A DNA stretch of 64,000 nt from an uncultured Bacillota bacterium (GCA_963804645.1 CAWDRG010000017.1:384001-448000); one strand, 5' to 3'. Positions 20,780 to 36,069 are shown, counted from the stretch's first letter. Notes: a model not told the origin generated them from the sequence alone. Numbers and translations: made by a program.

Positions 20780-21997
<1,218 letters not shown>

Positions 21998-22096
21998 TCC
22001 CCTGCCTCCTGCCCAGCGGTTTCCGCGCTCTCGCCCGCCGCGCGGCTCACGGGCATCAAGACGCCCCTGCCGGAATACCGACAGGGGAACAGGTCC

Positions 22097-22172
22097 TGGA
22101 GCCCACGACCGGATTCGAACCGGTGACCTTGTCCTTACCAAGGACACGCTCTGCCGCCTGAGCTACGTGGGC
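22097..22172 (-). tRNA. tRNA-Thr (GGT)
   Basis: GCCCACGTAGCTCAG...TTGGTAA...GGTTCGAATCC...CCA. Confidence 0.98.
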
Positions 22173-22186
22173 CTGCGCGCAGACTG

Positions 22187-22214
22187 ATTATAGCAGGCAC
22201 CTTTAGGGTGTCAA
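22187..22214 (-). promoter_or_regulatory. Consensus promoter for tRNA-Thr-tuf
   Basis: TTGACA-16 bp-TATAAT with extended -10 TG. Confidence 0.85.
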
Positions 22215-22368
22215 TCGAACCGCGACACGATGCGCGCCGCTGACGCAGTAGCGCCGGAGGAGTCGCCCGCGGTACCGACTAAGTAGCCCGCGGTCGGTCG
22301 TGCGGAGTCCCGGCGTAGGTCTCTACCTTCCCGCGCGAGTCCTATTCAAGGGAGATCACGGTGCCTCC

Positions 22369-23025
22369 ATGCCTGTACACACGCTCCAATTCCGCGCGGT
22401 GCTGTTCGATCTCGACGGGACCCTGATCGACTCGCACCGCCTGATCGTCGCGTCGTTCCGGCACGCGTGCCTTTCGGTGCTCGGCCGCGAGATCACCGAC
22501 GCGGACGCACAGGTCCGCTGGGGACAGCCGCTCCCGGTCCGGTTCGCCGCGGTCGCACCCGACCGCATCCCGGCACTCGTGGACGCCTACGCGGCGTACT
22601 ACAACGAGCACGAGCGGGCGCTCGCCTCGGTGTTTCCAGGTATTCCGGGGATGCTCGACGCCCTGACCCGCGCGGGACGGACGATCGGTGTGGTCACGTC
22701 GAAACGCAGCCGCGCCGCGGTGCAGGCGCTCCAGGTGCTCGCGCTGGCGCCGTGGATTACGACGACGGTCGGCGCGGATGACGTCCCGGCCCCGAAACCG
22801 GCCGCCGACCCGATACGGGAAGCGCTCCGGCGCCTGGGCGTCGACCCGGCGTCCGCGTTGATGGTCGGCGACGGCGTGTTCGATATCCAGGCCGCCCGGG
22901 CCGCGGGTGTGCGCGGCGCGGCCGCGCTGTGGGGCGTCGACGACCCGACGGGCGTGCTCGCGTGCCGGCCGGACTACGTCGTGCGCTCGCCCGACGAGGT
23001 GGCCGCGCTCGCCGCGTCAGAGTAG
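22369..23025 (+). CDS. HAD-IA hydrolase (PpaX/Gph-like)
   Basis: FDLDGTL, VTSK, KPAADP, MVGDGVFD. Confidence 0.92.
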   Translation: MPVHTLQFRAVLFDLDGTLIDSHRLIVASFRHACLSVLGREITDADAQVRWGQPLPVRFAAVAPDRIPALVDAYAAYYNEHERALASVFPGIPGMLDALTRAGRTIGVVTSKRSRAAVQALQVLALAPWITTTVGADDVPAPKPAADPIREALRRLGVDPASALMVGDGVFDIQAARAAGVRGAAALWGVDDPTGVLACRPDYVVRSPDEVAALAASE

Positions 23026-24092
23026 AGCATCGCCCGACGGACGGCGAGCCGCACCGCATCCCCCGGACGCGCGGTGTCTTCCGCCCGCCCCTCGACGCGC
23101 ACCGCGAGTTCTCCGACCTGCACCACGTATTCGATCCGGTTGCCGAGGTAACTCGCGCGCGACACCCGCCCCGCCAGCACCCCGTCCGACGCAAGCGCCA
23201 GCGCCTCCGGGCGGGCGCACACCACCACGTGGCCGCTCAACGCCGTGCCGGGCACGGTGAGGACGTGCGCATCGGTCCCATCGAGCAGCCGCACCCGGAC
23301 GCCTTGACCGTCGCGTCCGATCACGACGGCGGGGAGGAAGTTGGCCGCGCCCACAAACCCGGCGACCACGGGGTCGACCGGATGCTCGTACAGCTCGCGC
23401 GGGGTCCCGATCTGGGCGGGCCGGCCGGCCAGCAGCACCATGATCCGGTCCGACATCGCCATCGCCTCGCTCTGATCATGCGTGACGTACACGACGGTCA
23501 CGCCGAGACGCGCGTGCAGCTCTCGGAGTTCCGCCCGCATCTCCTCGCGCAGCTGCGCGTCGAGGTTGCTGAGCGGCTCGTCCAGCAGCAGCACCGCGGG
23601 CTCCATCACCAGCGCGCGCGCGAGCGCGATCCGCTGCTGCTGGCCGCCCGACAGTTCGGTCGGGTACCGGGACGCGAAGGCCTCGAGATGCACGAGGCCG
23701 AGCGCGTCGCCGGTGCGCCGCTCCATCTCGGCGCGAGAGCACCGTGCGCGGCGCAGCGGGTACGCGACGTTCTCGGCGGCGGTCATGTGGGGCCATACCG
23801 CATAGCTCTGAAACACCATCCCCATGCCCCGGCGCTCCGGCGGCACACTGATGCGCTCGTCGGCCGAGGACAGCACGCGGCCGTCGAGGAGAATCCGGCC
23901 GGCCGTCGGCGCCACAAAGCCGGCGATCATCCGAAGCGTCGTGGTCTTCCCGCACCCCGAGGGGCCGAGCAGCGTCAGGAACTCCCCGGCGCGGATCGTG
24001 AGGGTGACGTCGCGGACCGCCCAGACGGGGTCGCTTCGCCGGCCCGGCCCGGCAAACGCCTTGCCGAGGCCGTCGAGCCGCAACTCAGCCAC
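22974..24092 (-). CDS. ABC transporter ATPase (FbpC/PotA-like)
   Basis: GPSGCGKT, LSGGQQQR, LLLDEP and a TOBE-like C-terminus. Confidence 0.96.
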   Translation of the reverse strand: MAELRLDGLGKAFAGPGRRSDPVWAVRDVTLTIRAGEFLTLLGPSGCGKTTTLRMIAGFVAPTAGRILLDGRVLSSADERISVPPERRGMGMVFQSYAVWPHMTAAENVAYPLRRARCSRAEMERRTGDALGLVHLEAFASRYPTELSGGQQQRIALARALVMEPAVLLLDEPLSNLDAQLREEMRAELRELHARLGVTVVYVTHDQSEAMAMSDRIMVLLAGRPAQIGTPRELYEHPVDPVVAGFVGAANFLPAVVIGRDGQGVRVRLLDGTDAHVLTVPGTALSGHVVVCARPEALALASDGVLAGRVSRASYLGNRIEYVVQVGELAVRVEGRAEDTARPGDAVRLAVRRAMLYSDAASAATSSGERTT

Positions 24093-25812
24093 GGGTCGCC
24101 CCGTCGGCGCCCCGCAGCACGGCCCGGGACGCCAGATTAATCACCAGCAGCATCATCGTCACCAGGAACGCCAGCGCGGCGGTCAGCGTGGCCTTCCCTT
24201 CGTCGTTCAGGCCGAAAATCGTCACCCCCAGGGTCTCGTTGCCGACCGAGAACAGCAGAATCGACAGGGTCAGCTCGGCGACCGCGGGGATAAAGGCCAG
24301 CACCCAGCCGGCCGCCAGGCTCGGCCGGATAATCGGCACGACGATGTCCAGAAAGGCCTGGAGCGGGCCCGCGCCGCTGATCCGAGCGGCCTCCTCGAGC
24401 GTGCCCTGCACCTGCGCCAGGCCGGCCAGCACGGTCCGGACGCCGATTGCCAGAAACCGCGCGATATAGGCGAGAAAGATGATCCAGAATGTGTCGTACA
24501 GGCGCAGCCCGATGATCGGGATCGGCCGCAGCCACGCCAGGATCATGCCGAGCGCCACCACCGTGCCGGGGATCGCGTACGGAATCGTGATGACGAGGTC
24601 GAGCACCGCGCTGCCCCGCAGGCGCACTCGGGTCAGGAGGTACCCGAACCCGACCGCCAGCACGAGGATCAGGGTCGCCGATCCGGCGGCAAGTTCGAGG
24701 CTGTTCAAGAGCGCCCGCGGTACTTTCGGGACCGCGATCACCTCCGCGTAGTGGACCAGCGTCAGGTTGTTCGGGGCCGGCGGCAGGCCGTAGGCCCGAA
24801 TGAGCGACGTTACCAGGATCGCCGCGAGCGGCAGCACGACGCTCACCGTCACGAACGCGCCGAGGCCGCAGGCGATCGGGTACCGCCAGCGCCCGAGCGT
24901 CACCAGCGAAACGCCGCCCGCCTGCCCCCCGACGACCGCGAACCGGTTGCGCCGCTGCAGCCACCGCTGGAGCCACAGCAGCACTGCGGCGATGACAACG
25001 AGCCACATCGAGAGCGCCGCCGCAAGGTTGAGATTGTCGCGCTGGTCGAAGTTGAGAATCGTCTCATAGATGCGCGTCGTCAGCACGTAGTACCGCGCCG
25101 GGAACCCGATCACCGCGGGAATCCCGAAGTCCCCGAGCAGCGACATGAGGAGCAGCAGCGCGCCGGCGAGGAGCCCCGGGAGCATCAGCGGCACGGTGAT
25201 CTCCCAAAAGACGCCCCACGGGCCGGCGCGCGACATCCGCGCCGCCTCCTCGAGCACGGGATTCATCCGCTCGAGCACGCCGAGCGAGGCCAAGAATACG
25301 ATCGGATACCCGTACAGGACCATCACGCCGATAATCCCCACCGGCCCGTAGACGACCGCGAGCGGAGTCGCGGACCCGGTCAGCGCCATCCAAATCTGGT
25401 TGAGGTAGCCGACCGGGCTCAGCAGGTAGACCCACGCGATGGCCCCGATGAACGGCGGGATCATGTAGGGAAGCAGGAGCGCGGTCCGCCACGCGGCGCG
25501 GCCGGGCACGTCGGTCCGGCTGACGATCCACGCCAGGGCGACTCCGAGGACGATCCCGCCCGCCGTCGCGGCGACCGATACCACCAGGCTGTGGAGGAGC
25601 ACGGTGTAGACTTGGGCGTCGGCGGCCAGCTGCGCGTAGAGCGCGAGCGACAGGCGTCCGCCGGCCACGAACGAGCTCAGGACCAGCACGAACGACGGGT
25701 ACACGAGCACCGCGGCCAAGAGCGCCGCCGACGCGGCACCGACGGCGATCAGCGCGAGCCGCGCCGCGCGGGGCGGTTCGGTACGCCGCCCGGCCCCCGC
25801 CGCGAGCGTCAC
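24085..25812 (-). CDS. ABC transporter permease with two TM modules (FbpB-like)
   Basis: Two EEAAR loops and about 12 TM helices. Confidence 0.95.
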   Translation of the reverse strand: MTLAAGAGRRTEPPRAARLALIAVGAASAALLAAVLVYPSFVLVLSSFVAGGRLSLALYAQLAADAQVYTVLLHSLVVSVAATAGGIVLGVALAWIVSRTDVPGRAAWRTALLLPYMIPPFIGAIAWVYLLSPVGYLNQIWMALTGSATPLAVVYGPVGIIGVMVLYGYPIVFLASLGVLERMNPVLEEAARMSRAGPWGVFWEITVPLMLPGLLAGALLLLMSLLGDFGIPAVIGFPARYYVLTTRIYETILNFDQRDNLNLAAALSMWLVVIAAVLLWLQRWLQRRNRFAVVGGQAGGVSLVTLGRWRYPIACGLGAFVTVSVVLPLAAILVTSLIRAYGLPPAPNNLTLVHYAEVIAVPKVPRALLNSLELAAGSATLILVLAVGFGYLLTRVRLRGSAVLDLVITIPYAIPGTVVALGMILAWLRPIPIIGLRLYDTFWIIFLAYIARFLAIGVRTVLAGLAQVQGTLEEAARISGAGPLQAFLDIVVPIIRPSLAAGWVLAFIPAVAELTLSILLFSVGNETLGVTIFGLNDEGKATLTAALAFLVTMMLLVINLASRAVLRGADGATRG

Positions 25813-25845
25813 ACGATCCCCCCGAACCGCTCCGCTGCGACCGGC

Positions 25846-26901
25846 CTACTGCACGCCGAAGATGTCGGTAAACGTCTTCTTGATCTCGTCCCGGTGCGTG
25901 TTGATATACGTCAGGTTCGGCTGAATGATCTTGATCGACGACAGCGGCGGCGCCCCCGCGGGCAGCGGCACCCCCGGAAGCACCGGGATGTACGAGCGCT
26001 GCACGAACAGCGCCTGTGCGTCGGGCGTGTAGAGGTAGTTCACGAACGCCTCGGCTGCCGGCAAATTCGACGTCGCCTTCACGATCGCGATCGGGGTCGG
26101 GATGAGCACCGCGCCCTCGGACGGCACGATGTAGTCGACCGGCGACCCTTGTGACTTCGCGAACCGGACGAAGAAGTCGACGATCGACCCCACGGCGATC
26201 TCACTCGTCGAGAGCTTCTGGATGACGTCGCCGTTCGCATTGAGAATCTGCACGTCGTTCTTCTTGAGGGCCCGATAATAGTCCCACCCGAAGCCCTTCA
26301 TGCTGGCGAACGTGCCCACATTCGCGAACGCAGCGCCGGAGATAAACGGATTGGGCATCCCCGCCTTGCCGCGGTACCGCGGAGCCGCGAGGTCCCACCA
26401 CGTCGTCGGCTTGAAGTGGACCGCCATCGTGTTGAAGCCGAGCACGTTGAAGATCAGGCGGACCTCGTGCTCCTGGTTGCCGTCGTAATGGAACTCGCGC
26501 GGGACGCCGCGCGATGCCGGCGGCAGGTACGACGCCAGCAACCCTTTGGTCGACAGATCGTGCAGAAAGCCGATGTCCGCAAAGTAGAGCAGATCGGCCT
26601 GGATCTTCCCCGCCTGCTGCTCCGCCTGCACCTTGGCCTCGACGGGGCCGGTGCCGGCCCGGAACACTCGCACGGTAACGCCGGGCGTCCGTTTCATGAA
26701 GTCGCCCACGAGCAGGTTGATGTCGTCCTCTGATTCCGAGGTATACAGGTTGATGGTCCCGGAGGGCGCCTCGGCGGCTAGGGCCGCCCCGCCGCGTCCC
26801 AGCCCGACCCACGCGGTGCCACCACTCATCCCAAACCCAAGCAGCGCCGCCGCGAGCGCCACGATCAGCACGTGCCGTCCCCGGTGCCTCCAGTTCGTCA
26901 C
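25846..26901 (-). CDS. ABC substrate-binding protein (FbpA/AfuA-like)
   Basis: Signal peptide; LYTS, PTTWWDL, PSEGAV, AAEAFVNYL. Confidence 0.92.
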   Translation of the reverse strand: MTNWRHRGRHVLIVALAAALLGFGMSGGTAWVGLGRGGAALAAEAPSGTINLYTSESEDDINLLVGDFMKRTPGVTVRVFRAGTGPVEAKVQAEQQAGKIQADLLYFADIGFLHDLSTKGLLASYLPPASRGVPREFHYDGNQEHEVRLIFNVLGFNTMAVHFKPTTWWDLAAPRYRGKAGMPNPFISGAAFANVGTFASMKGFGWDYYRALKKNDVQILNANGDVIQKLSTSEIAVGSIVDFFVRFAKSQGSPVDYIVPSEGAVLIPTPIAIVKATSNLPAAEAFVNYLYTPDAQALFVQRSYIPVLPGVPLPAGAPPLSSIKIIQPNLTYINTHRDEIKKTFTDIFGVQ

Positions 26902-27059
26902 GGTTCCCTCCAGCGTATAGCCCTACGCGGTACGCGTGAACGTCCGCGCCGCCCTACTCGTTCCTGTCCGGCGCCCCGCGATCCTGTGCCATACGCGTCG
27001 CGTGGGCGAAGGCTGCGTGAAGACGATTCGGACCTCGTCGACGCGGCCCCGACGCCGTC

Positions 27060-28298
27060 TTACGCCCCGCCGTTCGTATGGGGCACCGGAGCTGCGGGCA
27101 CCTGTGCCTCGTCCGCCCCCCGCCACAGCTCCTCGAACTGCCCTTTGTTCCATCGCGCCAGCTCCAGGCCCGGCCCCATCGAGTGGCCCTCGAACGCGAT
27201 AGTGCCCTCGTAATCCCGAAGCGCCGCCAGCACCCGGACGAGGTTGCGGGATCCCTCGCCGAGCGGCAGGTGGAGCCGGGTCTCGTCGGCGTCGCTCAGG
27301 TGCACATGCACGATCCGCTCGAGCGCGCCGATGAAGGCCACCTCGTCGGTACCCCACGGGATATGCGCGACGTCCAGGGTGGTCCCCACGTTGTCCCGGT
27401 CGACCTCGCGCACGAGCCGGTTCGCATCGTCGGCGGTCACCACGTACTCGCCCTGTCGCGGCTCCATGTGCTCGACGCCGAGGCGCAGCCCGTGTTCGGC
27501 GGCGTGGGCGGCCAGCTCCCGGATCCCGGCCACCAACCCAGGCCAGTAGCGCTCCGCGTCGTCGTAGGGCATCGTCACGTGTCCCGGATGCATCACCACC
27601 AGCCCCGCCCCGAGGCGCGCGGCCAGCGCGATGGACTGATGCAGCGCCTCCATCGAGACCGCACGCACCGCGTCGACGCGCGACGTCGTATTGAGATCCC
27701 AACTCATCGCGTGCAGGGTCAGCACCATCTTCAGCGCCCGCGCCCGAGCGGCGACCGCCGCGGGGTCGCTCGCCATCTCGGTCAGATGGTAATCCCATAA
27801 CTCGACGCCGTCGTAGCCGAGTTCGTGCGCCACTGTGAGGATCTCCTCGGGCGGGTGCACCCACATCAAGGGCGCGCTGAGCAGCACGCGGCAGCGTCGG
27901 TCCACCACCGGCAGCGCGCCCGGGCGGATCGGCAGCGGCGGGATCGTCGTCTCGCGGAGTCGGCGGCGCCTCGGGCGTACGATGTCGACGGTTGTGCGGA
28001 GTTCGGCCGCGACCCGGAACGTCTTGGTCAATACGCGCCCGGGCAGCCGGGTGATGAACTCACGGGGCTGCCGCCGGAACTCCGTCGTGACCTCAAATGG
28101 CTTCGCGAGCAGGCGCCGCATGACGCTGTCGACGTACTGTTCCATGAACTGGAGGGTGTCGACCGCGGTCGCGCGCCCGCAGACGATGCACAGCACCCGG
28201 GAGACGCTGCCGCTGCCGGACACGACCGAGTGGGACGTGGTGCGATGGCAGTAGCCGCAGTGGAGCGCCACTTCGTAGCGATCGCGCATGTTCGGCAT
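27060..28298 (-). CDS. Fusion of a Zn-ribbon domain and a xylose-isomerase-like TIM barrel
   Basis: CGYC...H...CIVC at the N-terminus; GYDGVELW, VEHM, LDVAH, HVHLSD, HLPLGEG and AFEG at the C-terminus. Confidence 0.85.
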   Translation of the reverse strand: MPNMRDRYEVALHCGYCHRTTSHSVVSGSGSVSRVLCIVCGRATAVDTLQFMEQYVDSVMRRLLAKPFEVTTEFRRQPREFITRLPGRVLTKTFRVAAELRTTVDIVRPRRRRLRETTIPPLPIRPGALPVVDRRCRVLLSAPLMWVHPPEEILTVAHELGYDGVELWDYHLTEMASDPAAVAARARALKMVLTLHAMSWDLNTTSRVDAVRAVSMEALHQSIALAARLGAGLVVMHPGHVTMPYDDAERYWPGLVAGIRELAAHAAEHGLRLGVEHMEPRQGEYVVTADDANRLVREVDRDNVGTTLDVAHIPWGTDEVAFIGALERIVHVHLSDADETRLHLPLGEGSRNLVRVLAALRDYEGTIAFEGHSMGPGLELARWNKGQFEELWRGADEAQVPAAPVPHTNGGA

Positions 28299-28313
28299 AG
28301 CGTCCTCCGTCCC

Positions 28314-29462
28314 TCAGGCGGTGATCGCGGCCAGTCGTCGGCTGAACTCGTCGAGAAACCTGGCTCCGGCCGCGCCGTCGGCGATCCGATGATCGACGGC
28401 GAGCGTGACGCGGCAGACCGGGCGGACCGCCAGCGCGTCGCCGCCGACAACCCAGGGGCGCAGGCGGACCGCGCCGATCGCGAGAATCGCCGCCTGGGGC
28501 GGGTTGATCAGCGCGGTGAACTCGTCCACCCCCCACATGCCCAGGTTGCTCACGGTGAACGTCGCCCCGGAGACGTCGTCGAGGCCGAGCGTGTCCTCGC
28601 GGGCGCGCCGGGCGAGCGCGGTGATCTCTTCGTCGATCATGTGCAACTCCTTGCGGTCGGCATCGCGCACGACGGGCACGATCAACCCGGTCGGCGTGTC
28701 CGCAGCGACGCCGACGTGAACAGCGTCGTGGACCACGACCGTCTCGCCGTCGAGCGACGCCCGAAGCTCGGGGTGGGCCCGGAGCACGCGGCCCGCGGCC
28801 CACACCATCACGGCGGTATACGACGCGGTTCCCCGGGCGCTGCGGGCCGCCGACATCTCGATCTCGCGTGTCAGATAGATATGCGGAATCTCGCGGGCAC
28901 TCTGCGCCATCCGCTGCGCGATCACGCGCCGGCGCCCCGCCAGCGGTGAGACCGCGTCGGCCGCACCCACCGCACGTGTGGGGACGTCCGCGGGCGACGG
29001 CGCGGCGATCTCGAGCGCGGCGCGCACGTCCGCCTCGGTAATCCTCCCGGCAGGACCAGTGCCGCGCAGTCCCGCGAGGTCCAGACCCGCCTCACGTGCG
29101 ATACGCCGCGCGACCGGCGTCGCGGCCACCGCGCCCGCCTGAGCCTGGGACGCCGCGGGCGCCCGCGGCGCGGCGTCGACGGCCCGGGGCGCCGGCGCGC
29201 GATCAGCGGCGGGGGTCGCCTCGCCGGCTGCGCCGATGTACGCGATGATCTTCGTCACGGGAATCGCCTCGCCGACCTGCGCGCGGATGTCGAGCAGCAC
29301 GCCTGACGCGGGGGCCTCAATCTCCATGTTGACCTTCTCCGTCGTGACCTCGGCGATCGGCTCGCCCTGCCGCACGGCATCCCCGGGCCGTTTCAGCCAG
29401 CGCACGATCGTCCCTTGTTCCATGGTCATGCTGAACTTCGGCAGGATGACCGGCGTGACCAT
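28314..29462 (-). CDS. 2-oxoacid/acetoin dehydrogenase E2 acyltransferase
   Basis: Lipoyl domain (TEKV), binding domain (GTGPAGRIT), catalytic DHRIADG. Confidence 0.95.
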   Translation of the reverse strand: MVTPVILPKFSMTMEQGTIVRWLKRPGDAVRQGEPIAEVTTEKVNMEIEAPASGVLLDIRAQVGEAIPVTKIIAYIGAAGEATPAADRAPAPRAVDAAPRAPAASQAQAGAVAATPVARRIAREAGLDLAGLRGTGPAGRITEADVRAALEIAAPSPADVPTRAVGAADAVSPLAGRRRVIAQRMAQSAREIPHIYLTREIEMSAARSARGTASYTAVMVWAAGRVLRAHPELRASLDGETVVVHDAVHVGVAADTPTGLIVPVVRDADRKELHMIDEEITALARRAREDTLGLDDVSGATFTVSNLGMWGVDEFTALINPPQAAILAIGAVRLRPWVVGGDALAVRPVCRVTLAVDHRIADGAAGARFLDEFSRRLAAITA

Positions 29463-30445
29463 CAGGCGGCAGCAATCTGACGCACGGCCGCCAGGATGTC
29501 CTCAACCTGAGGCACCGCCGCCCGCTCGAGCGCGCGATTATACGGGATCGGGCATTCCTGACCGCCCAGACGGATGATTGGTGCGTGCAGATGGTAGAGG
29601 ACGTCGCTCTCGGCGATGCGCGCCGCGACCTCTGCGCCGATCCCGAGAGTCCGGACGGCCTCGTGCACGATCACCACCCGCCCAGTCTTCCTCACCGATG
29701 CGAGCACCGTGTCCATGTCGAGTGGGCGGATCGACCGTAGGTCGACCACCTCGACGCTCACACCGTCCGCCGCCACCTGTTCGGCCGCCTCAAGCGCGCG
29801 CGCGACCATCACGGAGGTCGCCACCACCGTCACGTCCGCTCCCGCGCGCTTCACATCCGCGGCGCCGAGCGGCACGACGTACGGTTCCTCGGGCACCTCG
29901 CCCGTCGTGCGATACAGCAGCTTGTGCTCAACGAAAATGACCGGATTGTCGTCGCGGATGCTCGCCAGCAACAGCCCCTTCGCGTCCGCAGGCGTCGCCG
30001 GTGCCACGACCTTCAACCCTGGCACGTGCGCGAACCATGCCTCGAGGCTCTCGGAGTGCTGCGCGGCCGCGCCGGTACCCGATCCCGCCGGGGTTCGGAG
30101 CACCATCGGCACGCGGGCCCGTCCCCCAAACATATACCGGACCTTGGCCCCCTGCAGCACCAGCTGCTCCATGCACAGGGTGATGAAATCCATGAACTGA
30201 ATCTCGAGGACGGGACGCATCCCGGTCAGCGCGGCTCCGATCGCGCATCCGGCGAGCCCGGCCTCAGAGATGGGCGTGTCGCGAACGCGCGCGGGCCCGT
30301 AGGTCGTGAGCAGGCCGTCGGTGACGCCGAACGCGCCGCCGTACACGCCGATGTCCTCCCCGAGCAGGAACACGGCCGGGTCGAGGTCCATGGCTTGGCG
30401 CAGTGCCTCGCGAATCGCCTCCGCGTAACTCAACGATCGGCTCAC
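29462..30445 (-). CDS. TPP-dependent dehydrogenase E1 beta (AcoB/PdhB-like)
   Basis: [28 protein letters not shown]. Confidence 0.96.
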
Positions 30446-31410
30446 GCGTAGACGCCTTCCAGCAGCGTCGCGGGATCGGGCTCGGGGCTCGCCTCGGCGA
30501 AGCGCAGCGCCTCATCCACGGCCGCCAGGGCCTCGGCGGCCATCTCCGCAGCACGCTCCGGTGTCAGCGCCCCCTCGGCCACCAGGCGCGCCTCGCAGCG
30601 CGCGATCGGATCCCGCCGCTGCCACGCCTCGACGTCATCCCGCGTGCGGTAGCGCTGCCGGTCGCTCTTGCTGTGACCCTTATAGCGGTACGTCACGCAC
30701 TCGAGGAGCGTCGGGCCCTCGCCGGCGCGCGCCCGTCCGACGGCGGCGGCGGCCGCTTCCTCCACCGCCGCCACATCCATGCCGTCCACCGTGTCGCCCG
30801 GCACGTTGTAGGCGGCTGCGCGCGCGCTGATCCGATCGACGCCCATCGCCGCAGACACCGGCATCGACATCGCATACTGGTTATTCTCGCAGACAAAAAC
30901 AATCGGCAGGCGCCAGATCGACGCCAGGTTCATGGCCTCGTGGAACGCGCCCTCGTTGGCCGCGCCGTCCCCGAAAAACGCGGCGCAGACCTGCGCGGTC
31001 TTTCGCATCGTGATCGACAGCCCCACGCCGGTCGCGATCGGGAGCCCGCCTGCCACGATGCCGTTCGCGCCGAGGTTGCCGCTCTCCAGATCGGCAATGT
31101 GCATGCTGCCGCCGCGCCCGCGGCAGTAGCCCGTGTCCTTGCCGAGAAACTCGGCCATCATTCGGCCCACATCGGCCCCGCGCGCCAGGCAGTGACCGTG
31201 ACCACGATGCGTGCTCAAGATGTAGTCGTCCGGCCCCAGCGCCCCGCACACGCCTGCGGCGACCGCCTCCTGCCCGATGCTCAGGTGCATGGTCCCGTGC
31301 ACCTTGCCGAGCGCAAACAGCTCGTCCGCTTTCTCCTCGAACGCGCGGATCAAGCGCATCGTCCGCAGCCGCGTCACGCCGCGCCCAGTCGGCGGAGGCA
31401 CGGTCTTCAC
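30442..31410 (-). CDS. TPP-dependent dehydrogenase E1 alpha (AcoA-like)
   Basis: [24 protein letters not shown]...ENN, YRYKGHS. Confidence 0.96.
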
Positions 31411-32405
31411 GGCGCGTCGGCCTCCCCGAGTGGACGCTCGCCGTCCGCGCCCGCGAGACCGCTGGCCCGCCCGAGGCGCAGCACGGCGCGGGCGGCGATG
31501 GAGTCGGTCACCAGCACATCCACCAAGCCTCCGGCGAGCGCGCCGAGAATTGCGTCGGCCTTCTCGAGCCCTCCCGCCACCCCAATGACGAGCGGGATTC
31601 GCGCCAGGTCCTCCAGGTCGATCGCGAGGATCCGCGTCGCCACGTCACCGACGAGCGGCACACCGTCGGACGAGAACGCGCGCGTGCAGATGTCTCCGAC
31701 CGCCCCCTGCCGCCGCGCGGCTGCCATCTCCGCGGCGGAGATGTAGCCGCTCTCGATCAGCGTCGAGGATGGGACGAGGGCGCCGATCCCGATCAGCGCG
31801 ACGTCCACCCGCCGCGCGAGTTCGAGGACATGGCCGATCCGCTCGTCGGACAGCAGCGCTTCCCGAACGCTGCGCCGCGCGACGATCGCGGGCGCGTGGA
31901 GCAAATGGACGCGGCCGCCGTGCAGCTCCGCCAGCCGCCGCGCGAGCTCGTTCGCGTGGATTTCCGGAGCCGCTTGCCCGAGGCCGCCCACCAGCGGCAC
32001 CACGACCGTGGCCAGTGCCCGCGGCCGCACGCTGTCGACCACGGCCTTGAGCGTGGTGCCCCAGGAGATGCCGACGCGCTCGCCGCCCTTGAACGCGCGG
32101 TCGAGGTACTCGGCGGTGGCCTGCCCGAGCGCACGCCGCGTCACCGTCGGCGACTCGCTCCGCCCCGGAATCACGATCGCCTCGCGCAGGCCGAACCCTT
32201 CTTCCAACTCATGCTCGAGCCGCTGATGCGTCCCTTCAGGCTGTGTCACTTCGATACGGACGATCCCGGTCGCGCGGGCGCGCGTGAGGAGCCGGGATAC
32301 GGTCGGCCGCGACAGCCCGAGGCGCACCGCGATCTGCTGCTGCGTCAGGGTGCGAAGGTAGTACAAATCCGCGACTTTCGCCATCAGCACCCGATCGTCG
32401 CTCAT
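31407..32405 (-). CDS. SorC/DeoR-type sugar-binding transcriptional regulator
   Basis: [50 protein letters not shown]. Confidence 0.94.
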
Positions 32406-33718
32406 CGCGCCGCCCCCGCACTCGTGGTCAGCGTCCCCCGCTGGATGGCCGCATCCTGCTGACGCCGCAGATGCACGATCGTCAGTGATTGGTCGAGCCG
32501 CACATCGTCGGCGGTCAGCGACGTCCCTCGGGGCACGTCGCGCTGGAGCCGTGCCCCCTGGATCACCCCGATCGGAAGGGCGCCCGACCGAGCCGTCCGA
32601 TCGGCGGCGTCGATCGTCCCGTAGACCATGGACCCTCCGATACCGTCGATCACGTCGTCGACCCGCAGGTCACGCTTCGCCACCGCAATGCATTCCGCGA
32701 CCGGCCCGGCCGACGCCTGCATCGTGGCTTCACCCGCCAGGACGGCCCGTGCCACCGACAGCGGCACCTCAAGGCTGGCAAGGTGATACGGCCGGACGAG
32801 CAGATAATAGGGCCCGTCACCCATCTTCAGGTACGCCAAGTCGCGTCGGATCGGCGCGCTGGGCGACGTCACGACCAAAAAGACCCCCGGGGCGACATCA
32901 CCGACCGCGTACTCGACGGCGCCGGCGCTGCTCAACACGCCTCCCGCGGAGACGGGAACGAAGACGCGCAGCAGATCGCCCAAGTCGGCGTGCGGGCCGT
33001 GCATCCCGGGGCAGTCCGGCCGGAGGCCCGTGGCATTCGCCAGCGCGGCCATTTCGACCATCGTCTTCGTCCCATCCACGAACGCGGTCAGCATCTTGGC
33101 GCTCATGCCGCGGGCGGCCGCTTCGCCGGCGACCGCGTCCGGGGTCGCCGTCCGATCGAGACGGTTGTTCTTGCCTTTGCCAGCGCACACCACCTCCAGG
33201 CCGATCGCGCGGGCAAATTCGACCATCTCGAATAGGACGACCGGCTCGTCCCCGGCGCCGACCGTGTACACGGAGCCACGGTCGCGCGCCATCCACCCGA
33301 GCAGCGGACCGACGGTGGCGTCGGCCTCGACAGTCATCGTCACGAACGGCACCGTCCGGCCGATCGCAAGCAGCGCGAGGCGGGCCGTGACGTCCGGAAT
33401 GCCCGTGGCGTCGACAACGACGTCGATCCCGGGCGCGCCGACGAGCCACTCCGCGTTGGAGGTCACCACGGTCCGGGCCTCGGCTAGGAGGCGATGGGCT
33501 TCCGCCTCGGAGGTCGCCGCGTCGCTCCGGACCTCCGCGCGGGCCGCGGCGGCTGCCGCCCGCTCCGCGACCACGTCACACACCGCGGCCAGACGGAACC
33601 CGGGGAGATGTGCCAATTGGTCGGCCAGCCCGCTGCCCATCTGGCCGGCGCCAATGACGGCGGCCTTGATCGGCCGCCCTTCCTGTTCTCGTTTCCTCAG
33701 CGCGCTTCGGATCGTCAT
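32402..33718 (-). CDS. NAD(P)-dependent oxidoreductase with a C-terminal SAF domain (COG4091-like)
   Basis: IGAGQMG, GDEP, AGKGKNN, FVDGTKTMVEM, RPYHL, AKRDL...DGIGG; start at ATG 33718. Confidence 0.9.
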   Translation of the reverse strand: MTIRSALRKREQEGRPIKAAVIGAGQMGSGLADQLAHLPGFRLAAVCDVVAERAAAAAARAEVRSDAATSEAEAHRLLAEARTVVTSNAEWLVGAPGIDVVVDATGIPDVTARLALLAIGRTVPFVTMTVEADATVGPLLGWMARDRGSVYTVGAGDEPVVLFEMVEFARAIGLEVVCAGKGKNNRLDRTATPDAVAGEAAARGMSAKMLTAFVDGTKTMVEMAALANATGLRPDCPGMHGPHADLGDLLRVFVPVSAGGVLSSAGAVEYAVGDVAPGVFLVVTSPSAPIRRDLAYLKMGDGPYYLLVRPYHLASLEVPLSVARAVLAGEATMQASAGPVAECIAVAKRDLRVDDVIDGIGGSMVYGTIDAADRTARSGALPIGVIQGARLQRDVPRGTSLTADDVRLDQSLTIVHLRRQQDAAIQRGTLTTSAGAAR

Positions 33719-33731
33719 GAACGTATGTTCA
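33718..33731. promoter_or_regulatory. Palindromic operator TGAAC-GTAT-GTTCA at the operon start
   Basis: Inverted repeat overlapping the first start codon of the SorC-containing operon. Confidence 0.6.
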
Positions 33732-34069
33732 GCCAGGAAAGAATGTGCATCCGAACTTCGAGCACGAGACCGCAACTCCTCCCATCCCGACCGCGCCCGA
33801 GATGGGGGCCCCCGCGTGGGACCCGCCCGGGCGCGTTCGACGGCTGCGGGCGGGGACGGAGGGCGAGCGGCGGTACGCTCGAGGATCGACGAGGTGCGCA
33901 TCGCGACGGTTCTGACGCGTGACGACGACCATCGCGACGTCCGCAGCCGACGCGGCGGCTCGGACCGGGCACGTGGCCAGTGCACCGGATCTCGCGCCCG
34001 GCCCCGCTCTACGGCGTAGCATTCGGCCGAAACTCGTGCGAGACAGGACCTCCGATCGAACGTCTCCAG

Positions 34070-34190
34070 CAGTAGAGGAAACAATGAGAAGGCGCGCCCC
34101 CTCGCCGCGCCGCCCCGTCCCCACGCGTGGACGGTGCGATTGCGCCCGTGGGCATGGCGCGGCGTCTCTGCGCAACCGGCGTCTCGACTG
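34070..34190 (+). ncRNA. Candidate c-di-GMP-II-like riboswitch upstream of ftsH
   Basis: GGAAACAATGA, TGGGCA and GCGCAACCGGC in the expected order, closed by CAGTAGAG/CTCGACTG. Confidence 0.4.
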
Positions 34191-34251
34191 GCCGCCCGAC
34201 GGTGCCGCGATCGAGAGAACGGAGACGCTCGAAAGGAGTCCCGTCCGCGAG

Positions 34252-36069
34252 ATGCCTGCACGTCCGAATCGATGGGTCCGAATCGCCAGTGCCGCGACTG
34301 TGGCCGTGGTCGTCCTGATGGTCTGGCTGGCCGCCGGCAGCATCCGCCCAACGCCGGACACCGCGATCGCCTACAGCAGGTTCCTTGACCTGGTCCGCGC
34401 CGGCAAGATCGCGAGCGTTGTGCTGCAGGGCGACGTGGTCACGGGGCGGGTGGCGCACGGGGCCCCCTTCCACACCTATCTGCCGACCGGCGACACCTCC
34501 GCCCTCGCGATGCTCGAGGCGAAAGACGCCACGATCACCGTCGCCCCACCGGCCCGGCCGAGCGCGTTCGCGTGGCTGATGGCGCTGCTGGGGGTGTGTC
34601 TCTTGTTCGGCATGGCGTGGTGGACCGCGCACCAGCGGTCGACCGGCGGGCCGGAGATCCTGTCGTTCGGGAAGAGCCGCGCGCGGCGCCACACCGAGGC
34701 GGAGATGCGGGTCACGTTCGACGATGTCGCGGGCGTGGAAGAGGCGAAAGAGGAACTGGCGGAGATCGCTGAGTTCCTCCGAAGCCCGACGAAGTTTCAG
34801 GAATTGGGCGCCAAGATTCCACGGGGCATCCTGCTCGTCGGCCCCCCGGGCAGCGGGAAAACACTGCTCGCGAAGGCCATCGCTGGTGAGGCGAAGGCGC
34901 CGTTTCTCTCGATCTCGGGCAGCGAGTTTGTCGAGATGTTCGTCGGCGTCGGGGCGAGCCGCATCCGGCACCTCTTCGACCAGGCGAAAAAACTGTCGCC
35001 CTGCCTGGTGTTCATCGACGAAATCGATGCCGCCGGGCGCCGGCGGGGAGCGGGCCTGGGGGCTGGCCACGACGAGCGCGAGCAGACCCTCAACCAGCTG
35101 CTCGTCGAGATGGATGGGTTCGATCCGAACTCCGGGATCATCGTCATCGCCGCGACCAACCGGCCTGACATCTTGGATCCGGCGCTGCTCCGGCCGGGCC
35201 GGTTCGATCGCCGCATCGTGGTCGACCACCCGGACTCACGGGGCCGCCGGGCCATTCTGGACGTGCACGCGCGTGGGAAACCGATCGCCCTGGAAGTGAA
35301 TCTCGACCAGGTCGCGCAGCGCACGCCGGGATTCAGCGGCGCGGAACTGGCGAACACGGTCAACGAGGCGGCGCTGCTCGCGGTCCGCCGGGGCAAAAAC
35401 CGGATCAGCCGGGCAGAGTTCGACGAGGCGATCGAGCGGGTGATCGGCGGGCCCCAGCGGAAGAGCCGGATTTTGAGTCCCCACGAGCGCAGGCTGACGG
35501 CGTTCCACGAAGGCGGGCACGCGCTGCTCGCGAAGCTGCTGCCGGCGGCCAATCCGCCCTATCGCGTCACGATCGTGCCACGCGGGATGGCGCTCGGCGC
35601 CGTGATGCTGCTGCCGCAGGAGGAAAAGCAAACGCGCACGCGCGATGAGATCCTCTCGAATATCACGGCCATGCTGGGAGGACGCGTCGCGGAAGAAGTG
35701 ACATTCGGCGAGATCACCACGGGGGCAGCCAGCGATTTCCAGCAGGCGACCGACTTGGCGCGAAGGATGGTGACCGAGTTCGGGATGTCGGAACGCCTGG
35801 GTCCGCTCGCCCTCGGGACACGACAGGGCTCGGCGTTCTTGGGCCGCGCCTCCGGTGAGAGCCGGAACTACTCCGATGAGATCGCCTGCGAGATCGACCG
35901 GGAAGTCCGACGCATCATCGACGAGTGCTACCGTCGGGCCCGGCAGGTGCTGACCCAGCACCGCGCGGTGCTCGAGCGCATCGCCGCGGCACTCCTGGCC
36001 CGCGAATCGCTTGATGGCGAGGAATTGGACGACCTCGTGCGCGGTGTGTCGAACGCCGCGTCAGCGTGA
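34252..36069 (+). CDS. ftsH: ATP-dependent zinc metalloprotease FtsH (probably a paralog)
   Basis: Two TM helices, [41 protein letters not shown] after AAGGAG. Confidence 0.95.

Follow-up and report, generated by a model that had tools for sequence, protein, structure and literature searches.

A recurrent operon joining a DXR-II-family oxidoreductase to a dedicated E1/E2 dehydrogenase complex in an uncultured Bacillota bacterium, and its possible role in methylerythritol catabolism

Organization of the locus

The stretch of DNA analysed here (henceforth the window) comprises 64,000 nucleotides from the genome (96.8% complete) of an uncultured Bacillota bacterium (GCA_963804645.1, CAWDRG010000017.1:384001-448000). 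Between positions 22974 and 33718 it contains nine minus-strand genes, identified by Pfam and NCBIfam, which code for an oxidoreductase of the DXR-II (DRL) family, a SorC-type regulator, the E1 and E2 components of a thiamine diphosphate (ThDP)-dependent dehydrogenase complex, a TIM-barrel fusion protein (TIM) and an ABC importer. In the order of transcription, and followed by the two neighbours on the opposite strand, these are (lengths in amino acids, aa):

32402..33718, minus: NAD(P)-dependent reductoisomerase-like oxidoreductase of the DXR-II (DRL) family, 438 aa (Pfam DRL_cat PF21135, 4.4e-62, and SAF PF08666, 7.9e-07)
31407..32405, minus: SorC/DeoR-type sugar(-phosphate)-sensing regulator, 332 aa (Pfam Sugar-bind PF04198, 6e-70, and an N-terminal HTH)
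30442..31410, minus: E1alpha, ThDP-binding, 322 aa (Pfam E1_dh, 6.9e-89)
29462..30445, minus: E1beta, 327 aa (Pfam Transket_pyr and Transketolase_C)
28314..29462, minus: E2 dihydrolipoyl acyltransferase, 382 aa (Pfam Biotin_lipoyl, E3_binding, and 2-oxoacid_dh, 2.7e-68)
27060..28298, minus: Zn-ribbon and helical N-domain fused to a ketose-3-epimerase-like TIM barrel, 412 aa (Pfam AP_endonuc_2, 1.3e-40, residues 156-377)
25846..26901, minus: AfuA/PhnS2-like periplasmic solute-binding protein (SBP), 351 aa (Pfam SBP_bac_8/6/11)
24085..25812, minus: fused two-domain ABC permease, 575 aa (two Pfam BPD_transp_1 stretches; best NCBIfam PhnU2, below cut-off)
22974..24092, minus: ABC ATPase with TOBE domain, 372 aa (Pfam ABC_tran and TOBE_2)
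22300..23025, plus: HAD-family phosphatase, convergent (Pfam HAD_2, 4.9e-37; membership in the system uncertain)
33919..36069, plus: FtsH protease gene, the upstream neighbour, divergent from the operon

The junctions from DXR-II through SorC, E1alpha and E1beta to E2 are four overlaps of 4, 4, 4 and 1 nt, E2 and TIM are separated by 15 nt and TIM and SBP by 158 nt, and the permease and ATPase genes overlap by 8 nt. This agrees with the initial annotation of a closely packed catabolic operon that would take up and degrade a sugar-like compound by means of a dedicated ThDP-dependent E1/E2, with the importer following after a gap given there as 160 bp. The importer also ends, as described there, against the convergent HAD phosphatase gene, which overlaps the ATPase gene by 52 nt. 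The outer edge of the operon, formerly set to 33731, has to be moved by 13 nt, as the oxidoreductase gene starts with the ATG at 33718; this start yields 438 aa and matches the length of the relatives P0002-P0004. A 649-aa open reading frame reaching 34351 is an over-extension upstream, an artefact of the high G+C content (~70%).

Annotation and homology search found no genes for an E3, a kinase or a phosphotransferase system (PTS) within the 64-kb window, and HPr, EII-GUT and EI have no match in the window's genome. The absence of E3, kinase and PTS noted in the initial annotation is thus correct for the window, but it is not a trait of the system, since most relatives possess a glucitol-family PTS, some a kinase and several an E3. 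The SorC protein matches best the NCBIfam models DeoR (235.7 bits) and LsrR (153.8 bits; cut-off 486), both below their cut-offs.

Identity of the oxidoreductase

The SAF domain initially reported for the oxidoreductase is present, whereas its membership in the DXR-II (DRL) family had been overlooked; this membership makes a reductoisomerase step, instead of the plain oxidation previously assumed, the likeliest chemistry. Among solved structures, the protein has relatives only in the Brucella DRL entries 3UPL and 3UPY (E 1.3e-93), with 3UPL aligning over residues 7-425, and the gene is a single copy in the genome. According to Carretero-Paulet et al. (2013; PMC3847144), the DRL family is split into DXR-II, which includes members with shown DXR activity, and the two uncharacterised clades DLO1 and DLO2; fosmidomycin is anchored in the Brucella enzyme by K191, K193 and T229, and the clade is marked by G121, T229, H250, V351 and R320. 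The same study reports that members of the DXR-II clade complement the loss of DXR, that Chloroflexus aurantiacus, which relies on mevalonate only, and Finegoldia magna, which has neither pathway, possess active DXR-II (classes C and E), and that fosmidomycin affects DXR-II less.

In the alignment to Brucella DRL, the window protein keeps the equivalents of K191, K193, T229, H250, R320 and V351 (K181, K183, T219, H240, R309 and V340 in its own numbering) as well as those of the dimer-interface positions E174, F178 and Y322. Conservation over 86 family genes from the gathered loci is complete for K191 and K193 (86 each), followed by G121 and R320 (85 each), T229 (84) and H250 (69). For comparison, a control set of six proteins from a more distant DRL paralogue family of the same phylum was examined: position 229 is occupied by S, S, S, L, L and I, and five of the six have A at position 121. 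This family separates from DXR-II in the tree (SH-aLRT 89) and shows the DLO pattern described in PMC3847144. By every test run, save position G121, the window protein is assigned to the DXR-II clade. Judged by family membership and by the complementation reported for other clade members, it may interconvert DXP (the 5-phosphate of 1-deoxy-D-xylulose) and MEP (the 4-phosphate of 2-C-methyl-D-erythritol).

Compared to the DRL of Brucella abortus, the window protein belongs to the same family and shares the DRL_cat and SAF domains and the substrate-anchoring and dimer-interface residues, but its gene is situated in a SorC-regulated uptake operon with E1/E2, in a genome that also has an ordinary DXR; moreover, the G121 position is a T, and the direction proposed here would be from MEP to DXP, not from DXP to MEP. 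Paralogues of the second DRL family, 36-42% identical to the window DXR-II, are found in many genomes of the window's phylum (loci L123-L126, L128 and L129). One genome of the same genus with a TIM-ABC locus without DXR-II carries elsewhere (L127, G072:C49) a 47%-identical DXR-II-type gene with the K, K, T signature, the grouping of which with Chloroflexota in the tree hints at a separate acquisition.

Recurrence of the gene set

When single genomes representing each species were scanned using a homologue alignment, 80 related loci were obtained, 39 of which have at least 6 kb on both sides (long loci). Queried with the window proteins as well as with the PTS components, E3, EI and HPr of four annotated loci, they contain:

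E1alpha and E1beta: 45 of all 80 loci, 29 of 39 long loci
SorC: 54 of all 80 loci, 33 of 39 long loci
glucitol-family (Gut) PTS: 54 of all 80 loci, 34 of 39 long loci
E1 and Gut PTS together: 34 of all 80 loci, 27 of 39 long loci
E3: 8 of all 80 loci, 6 of 39 long loci
SBP and permease of the window's kind: 3 of all 80 loci, 2 of 39 long loci
TIM homologue: 5 of all 80 loci, 2 of 39 long loci

Loci with linked E1 genes occur in Chloroflexota, Bacillota, Spirochaetota, Actinomycetota and Aerophobetes, and additionally in Pseudomonadota (on a plasmid of Sinorhizobium americanum), i.e., in at least six phyla. The core set therefore co-occurs in other genomes, as expected from the initial annotation, and its grouping into an operon is more than chance. 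On the Sinorhizobium plasmid, a sugar kinase and a sugar ABC system diverge from SorC-DXRII-E1a-E1b-E2-lpdA, and a Priestia plasmid carries Gut PTS, E1a-E1b-E2-lpdA, SorC, MFS, SorC and DXR-II together with an FGGY kinase gene. The DXR-II gene mostly stands directly after the PTS EIIA gene (about -0.4 kb), the position of srlD in the classical sorbitol operon. The constant part consists of DXR-II, SorC and E1/E2, and the variable part always provides uptake and, outside the window's lineage, phosphorylation. The four fully annotated loci contain no further conserved enzyme such as an aldolase or isomerase.

The general organization of these relatives resembles the glucitol/sorbitol operon srlAEBD-gutM-srlR in that GutM, EIIC, EIIBC and EIIA follow each other in the same order and precede a dehydrogenase gene. 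There are also differences: the dehydrogenase belongs to the DXR-II family instead of being a short-chain SrlD, most loci add E1/E2(/E3), and the window lacks any PTS. Mannitol-dehydrogenase-family genes and a D-lyxose isomerase adjoin the DXR-II gene in two loci (L020, L043), and two DXR-II-like places are situated on the Ligilactobacillus salivarius plasmid CP104730.1.

The E1/E2 complex

Concerning E1alpha, the window protein reaches 381.6 bits with the pyruvate dehydrogenase (PDH) equivalog TIGR03182 and remains below the cut-off of 393.85; five E1alpha linked to DXR-II, the window's included, score 375-387 bits, whereas the true PDH paralogues (L094, L100) pass with 436-439 bits. A tree of 72 rows was built from 48 E1alpha of DXR-II loci and 24 paralogues of the window's genome and five other cluster-bearing genomes. 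In this quick tree without bootstraps, 47 of the 48 linked sequences (the exception being L057) fall into two adjacent clades of 19 and 28 rows (SH-aLRT 98 and 83) with no paralogue inside, although the tree does not unite the two clades into a single one. The label linked or paralogue changes twice on the tree, against a mean of 20.2 after shuffling, and none of 500 shuffles was as low. The window E1alpha groups with linked E1alpha of other phyla (47-79% identity), apart from the paralogues of its own genome (38-52%). The separation from housekeeping PDH that the initial annotation had anticipated is hence borne out by tree and model score alike.

The linked clade possesses a specific N112, at the position of which all 22 paralogues compared are hydrophobic, and K248 directly after the conserved GHS motif, found in 94% of the linked clade and in 9% of the paralogues; both segments presumably line the substrate site, to judge from PDH structures. 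E1beta exceeds the cut-off of NCBIfam PRK09212 (387.9 bits; cut-off 321) and is 51-79% identical to its counterparts in related loci, compared to 48-56% for the genome's own paralogues. Basic residues gained in E1beta for holding a phosphate were looked for and rejected, as none was gained and the clade loses R/K at two positions. E2 contains DHRIADG and the lysine in TEKV, which we take to be its catalytic and its lipoylation motif, respectively, and the NCBIfam AcoC model covers only its lipoyl part. By sequence, the complex lies between PDH and the presumed acetoin-dehydrogenase paralogue. The window's genome contains about nine E1alpha paralogues, and its best E3 match (tblastn) adjoins another E1/E2 set on contig C5.

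Linked-type E1alpha also occurs elsewhere in four of five genomes with a DXR-II locus devoid of E1 (79, 78, 58 and 57% identity). In Bacillus safensis, an E1alpha that shares 79% identity with the DXR-II-linked protein of Cytobacillus is accompanied in the genome by a separate 51% paralogue, probably AcoA; as both copies coexist, the linked type would be a sister group to the acetoin enzyme and not identical to it. A plain acetoin operon was rejected as a reading on the same grounds, since the 51% paralogue is separate and the 79% copy is found with a PTS, dehydrogenases and SorC. With AcoABCL, the complex shares E1alpha/beta and a lipoyl-E2 (plus E3), and in both cases a methyl ketol (CH3-CO-CHOH-R) would be cleaved by E1 and its acetyl group handed on to CoA, whereas here the regulator is of the SorC type, the neighbours are sugar transporters, and the proposed substrate would be phosphorylated. 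Within the window's phylum, E2 is full, reduced to a piece of the size of a lipoyl domain, or absent.

The importer and the TIM-barrel fusion protein

The closest solved relatives of the SBP are AfuA (4R72-75, 3.1e-15) and the PLP-binding P5PA (6WCE), and its best NCBIfam model is PhnS2, part of a putative aminoethylphosphonate transporter, with 113 bits against a cut-off of 393. With AfuABC, the importer has the Fbp/Afu-type SBP, the fused double permease and the single ATPase in common, whereas the sugar-binding motif is not found in the window SBP. According to Sit et al. (2015; PMC4546632), AfuA binds glucose-6-phosphate, fructose-6-phosphate and sedoheptulose-7-phosphate, and the motif H205, D206, E229 defines its homologues. 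The assignment of the SBP as a sugar-phosphate binder on the basis of these ligand residues was rejected because most of them are not kept, and their loss argues that the cargo is not a cyclic hexose phosphate.

The C-terminal 270 residues of TIM match ketose 3-epimerases, the L-xylulose-5-phosphate 3-epimerase UlaE and 3WQO (MJ1311) with Foldseek E values of about 1e-15 and TM-scores to the target of 0.7-0.84; these are the best matches of the AlphaFold2 model (pLDDT 82), and 3WQO is at the same time the best sequence match (2.1e-19). In contrast to these proteins, the listed PDB matches of which cover the barrel part only, TIM has an additional Zn-ribbon and helical N-domain as well as additional invariant His/Asp residues. 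The N-terminal extension (about 110-130 residues) contains a CxxC...CxxC motif, the cysteines of which (C14, C17, C37 and C40) do not vary among 26 homologues, and conservation of the N-domain is high. Invariant are furthermore H196, H237, H312, H331, H333, D338 and H343, and the likewise invariant E276/E279, D309 and E370 could, together with H333, be metal ligands. An Endo IV-like phosphoesterase was considered for TIM and rejected: although hhalign against E. coli Nfo aligned the HPG, DxxH and HLxD motifs, its probability was 16% (E 0.0016), and Foldseek places ketose 3-epimerases first, such that this reading is a minor possibility.

The TIM family is tight and lineage-restricted, with 77 clusters at E <= 1e-10, most of which have the full length of about 400 aa and share 51-99% identity with the query; lower in the ranking, only fragments and one 40%-identical match were found. 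A search of 94 genomes of the window's phylum (G030 left out; orthologues defined by at least 55% identity) detected a DXR-II orthologue in 21 genomes besides the window's own. All 21 also contain the Zn-ribbon TIM, on the same contig in 17 of them and there at distances of 1.0-4.2 kb. A DXR-II-to-TIM spacing of about 1.0-1.1 kb corresponds to DXRII-SorC-TIM with no E1/E2 in between, one of about 3-3.3 kb to the presence of E1a-E1b without a full E2, and one of 4.0-4.2 kb to a full E2, i.e., the window's layout. Conversely, TIM is present in 30 genomes of the phylum, 21 with a clear DXR-II orthologue, two with fragments of it and seven without, the genomes of L116 and L117 being among these seven. 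TIM stands alone in one locus (L118) and with other ABC genes in another (L120), whereas more distant TIM and ABC homologues lie inside DXR-II clusters of a Chloroflexota metagenome-assembled genome (MAG; L035) and of a Bacillota MAG that also has a Gut PTS (L074). For 20 of the 77 TIM clusters, the length of the longest contig is exactly that of a DXR-II match, a proxy for a location on the same contig. TIM and ABC genes form a separable module that frequently, though not invariably, accompanies the core; the window's genome lacks a PTS, and its lineage uses the AfuA-like ABC importer and the TIM fusion instead.

A possible route of methylerythritol degradation

The order of import, oxidation, isomerisation and cleavage given in the initial annotation is not established. 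The reading that we prefer, as quite possible though short of probable, is that methylerythritol phosphate (or a close analogue) is converted to DXP by DXR-II, and that E1/E2 turns DXP into acetyl-CoA and glyceraldehyde 3-phosphate. In the window, the ABC system would import an anionic, probably phosphorylated, small polyol or ketose, which the epimerase-like TIM enzyme would adjust. Acting in reverse, DXR-II would then form DXP, a phosphorylated methyl ketol, from MEP or a close analogue; E1 would cleave it as acetoin dehydrogenase cleaves acetoin, in a reversal of the condensation by DXP synthase (DXS), releasing glyceraldehyde 3-phosphate; and the two-carbon unit would be transferred to the lipoyl-E2, which would release acetyl-CoA. 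E3 would be borrowed from another complex in the genome, and SorC would sense a phosphorylated intermediate. We infer from the families and their arrangement the direction of DXR-II, DXP as the E1 substrate, both products, the phosphorylated cargo and the TIM step.

This route is attractive since no enzymes beyond DXR-II and E1/E2/E3 would be needed, after uptake, to bring all five carbons to central metabolism and since no other conserved enzyme accompanies them in the fully annotated loci. A further attraction is that the sorbitol PTS reportedly carries methylerythritol into Salmonella, to go by the title of a paper by Testa et al. from 2004. Equally in its favour, a mutated PDH-type E1 can form the carbon-carbon bond of DXP, as described for a mutant E. 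coli PDH E1 that makes DXP in vivo (PMC3424233).

Some known systems exhibit partial similarity. Both the Lsr system for degradation of autoinducer 2 (AI-2) and the ery operon of Brucella have SorC-type regulators (LsrR, EryD), as is the case here. In the last step of Lsr, a phosphorylated derivative of a 1-deoxy-pentose is split to give acetyl-CoA and a triose phosphate, like in the proposed route, and EryC of the ery operon is an AP_endonuc_2 TIM-barrel epimerase, which is also the fold of the window TIM. Unlike here, however, cleavage in Lsr is accomplished by the thiolase-like LsrF and not by a ThDP-dependent E1/E2, and there is no kinase in the present operon; homology to Lsr was compared for the regulator only. 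In its widest form, and put forward here as a tentative proposal, the reading would describe a widespread undescribed bacterial pathway consuming 2-C-methyl-D-erythritol and its phosphates, with entry through a Gut PTS, through a transporter combined with a kinase, or, as in the window, through direct import of a phosphorylated form by an AfuA-like ABC system with a novel Zn-ribbon epimerase, followed by DXR-II in reverse and a PDH-like oxidative reversal of DXP synthase.

Alternative readings

Several observations weigh against methylerythritol phosphate as the substrate. The evidence for the substrate assignment is family membership and gene context; a phosphorylated anionic cargo, which would make a kinase unnecessary, is a reasonable guess at the level of the SBP family; and the TIM enzyme has no explained role in the route. 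Of the AfuA ligand residues, the sugar triad H205/D206/E229 is V, D and I in the SBP, such that one of three is kept (D206), and of the two hydroxyls contacting the phosphate, T takes the place of S37 and A that of T150, which leaves one of two, as T for S. In the window's phylum, E2 is absent in one relative (L119, G006:C1) or reduced to a match of 19% of its length in two others (L004, L005), and a further cluster (L115, G082:C42) has no E1 altogether. Further points against it, given in what follows, are in part also arguments for the same architecture serving another substrate, which we regard as a serious though not a probable alternative: the DXR-II homologue would be an ordinary polyol-phosphate dehydrogenase (like SrlD or GatD) acting on a hexitol, pentitol or deoxy-hexitol phosphate, and E1/E2 would take another keto intermediate, e.g., a 1-deoxy-hexulose phosphate giving acetyl-CoA and a tetrose phosphate, or a shared downstream metabolite. 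This would suit the location of the DXR-II gene in srlD's place after the Gut PTS EIIA gene, the neighbouring mannitol-dehydrogenase-family and D-lyxose isomerase genes mentioned above, and the window protein's deviation at G121, the equivalent of which is T111 compared to G in 85 of 86 relatives. The minimal loci of Listeria monocytogenes and of the Bacillus pumilus group hold only SorC, DXR-II, GutM and PTS, with no E1/E2 nearby, a layout that suits a hexitol operon whose product enters glycolysis directly, and in Ligilactobacillus salivarius (L122) fsa (fructose-6-phosphate aldolase) and tkt (transketolase), instead of E1/E2, come after DXR-II and the Gut PTS. On the DXR-II tree, genes with and without linked E1 are intermixed (10 changes among 64 labelled rows). 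Furthermore, the above-mentioned B. safensis copy belongs to a cluster (L130, G104:C3:11000-29000) in which E1a-E1b-E2-E3 and SorC are found with a galactitol-type PTS (EIIA2, EIIC-GAT, IIB), a Zn-dependent alcohol dehydrogenase and two short-chain dehydrogenases/reductases, and which looks like another uncharacterised polyol pathway with the same complex; in Alkalispirochaeta, too, a linked-type E1alpha lies beside EIIC-GAT and SorC. The module thus serves more than one polyol operon and its substrate need not be DXP; the substrate class of E1/E2 may be broader, e.g., 1-deoxy-ketose phosphates in general, or something else. On the other hand, E1/E2 would be dispensable if a hexitol 6-phosphate gave rise to, e.g., fructose 6-phosphate, yet these are present in 29 of the 39 long loci, and a PDH-type E1 acting on an ordinary ketose phosphate would yield glycolyl-CoA, for which we know of no assimilation route in these organisms. 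Likewise at odds with an ordinary polyol-phosphate dehydrogenase are the complementation of DXR loss by clade members, as reported in PMC3847144, and the near invariance, in the present loci, of K191, K193 and T229, by which the Brucella enzyme binds fosmidomycin.

Less is to be said for two independent, merely adjacent modules, one consisting of TIM and ABC genes (plus HAD) with a substrate of its own, the other of DXR-II, SorC and E1/E2 without an own transporter in the window, an arrangement that we consider unlikely. It would account for the 158-nt gap between TIM and SBP, for the loci with TIM alone or with other ABC genes (L118, L120), and for two loci of the same genus, a further point against the methylerythritol reading, in which TIM and SBP-permease-ATPase occur without DXR-II and E1/E2, as SorC-TIM-ABC in L116 and as TIM-ABC in L117, the same HAD gene adjoining in both and EF-Tu additionally in L117. 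However, E2 and TIM are just 15 nt apart on one strand, all 21 phylum genomes with a DXR-II orthologue also possess the Zn-ribbon TIM, mostly close by, and the distant TIM and ABC homologues inside DXR-II clusters of two other phyla (L035, L074) as well as the contigs apparently shared by 20 TIM clusters and a DXR-II match speak against mere adjacency. A biosynthetic bypass, in which the PDH-like E1 would substitute for DXS (pyruvate and glyceraldehyde 3-phosphate giving DXP) and DXR-II would supply MEP for isoprenoids, is highly improbable. The supply of DXP by the mutant PDH E1 in E. coli would be compatible with it, and so would the genome of Thermovorax subterraneus (G005, L053), which has no match for DXR-I or a true DXS, yet possesses IspG and two DRL_cat genes; this genome is either incompletely assembled or has an unusual entry to its MEP pathway. 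An ordinary DXR is, however, present in the window's genome, and lipoyl-E2/E3, transporter or PTS and the sugar-sensing repressor are all conserved, although none of them is needed for biosynthesis. Among ten other cluster-bearing genomes, three (G001-G003) have DXR-I and IspG, whereas six genomes of Chloroflexota (G004 and G099-G103, with G004 and G102 as complete chromosomes) have no match for either of the two, and G004 none for a true DXS, such that MEP has nowhere to go.

The lack of IspG and DXR-I matches in these six genomes, which mirrors the published cases of C. aurantiacus and F. magna, argues for a catabolic role instead of isoprenoid synthesis, and a catabolic system built on the DXR-II enzyme and a dedicated E1/E2 is what the operon very probably represents, with methylerythritol phosphate as the preferred candidate substrate.

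Novelty and implications

In agreement with the initial annotation, which did not recognise the gene set as a described pathway, no matching pathway was found in the openly searchable full-text literature. Full-text searches of the open literature (subscription journals not covered) found no paper dealing with methylerythritol catabolism, cleavage of DXP by a dehydrogenase complex or the gene context of DXR-II; all parts belong to known families, whereas their combination and the proposed pathway were not encountered in that literature. Concerning the distribution of DXR-II, a review of 2026 sees no defining pattern (PMC13001223); the gene context reported here, i.e., a Gut PTS or another uptake and phosphorylation module together with SorC and a dedicated E1/E2, constitutes a concrete and testable answer to this puzzle. 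In addition, a probable sister group of the acetoin and pyruvate dehydrogenase E1 enzymes is defined and tied to sugar-alcohol operons.

If methylerythritol is indeed the substrate, DXR-II would have arisen as a catabolic enzyme and been recruited to isoprenoid synthesis later, in Brucella and the like, which would explain its occurrence in bacteria without the MEP pathway, and a new sink would exist for a metabolite that every plant and the majority of bacteria produce. The use of DXR as a drug target would likewise be affected, given the lower fosmidomycin sensitivity of DXR-II reported in PMC3847144. Should this reading fail, what is left would still be a polyol pathway that spans phyla, includes a ThDP complex of its own and is uncharacterised.

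Other features of the region

A promoter and terminator scan gave no convincing signal within the operon, and the 200-nt intergenic region between FtsH and the operon, the expected site of the operon promoter and SorC operator, contains no match to a consensus promoter. Rfam detected three tRNAs and nothing else between 20000 and 37000. The HAD gene occupies an identical convergent place beside the ATPase gene in the two genomes of the same genus (L116, L117), which may, given their relatedness, reflect mere common ancestry. Outside the operon, a sigma-70 promoter with 12/12 consensus positions and a TG extension is situated at 22187-22214 (minus strand), just upstream of a tRNA gene (22100-22172, minus) and of EF-Tu (20780-22147, minus). 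The EF-Tu reading frame of 455 aa overlaps this tRNA gene, such that its true start lies further downstream.

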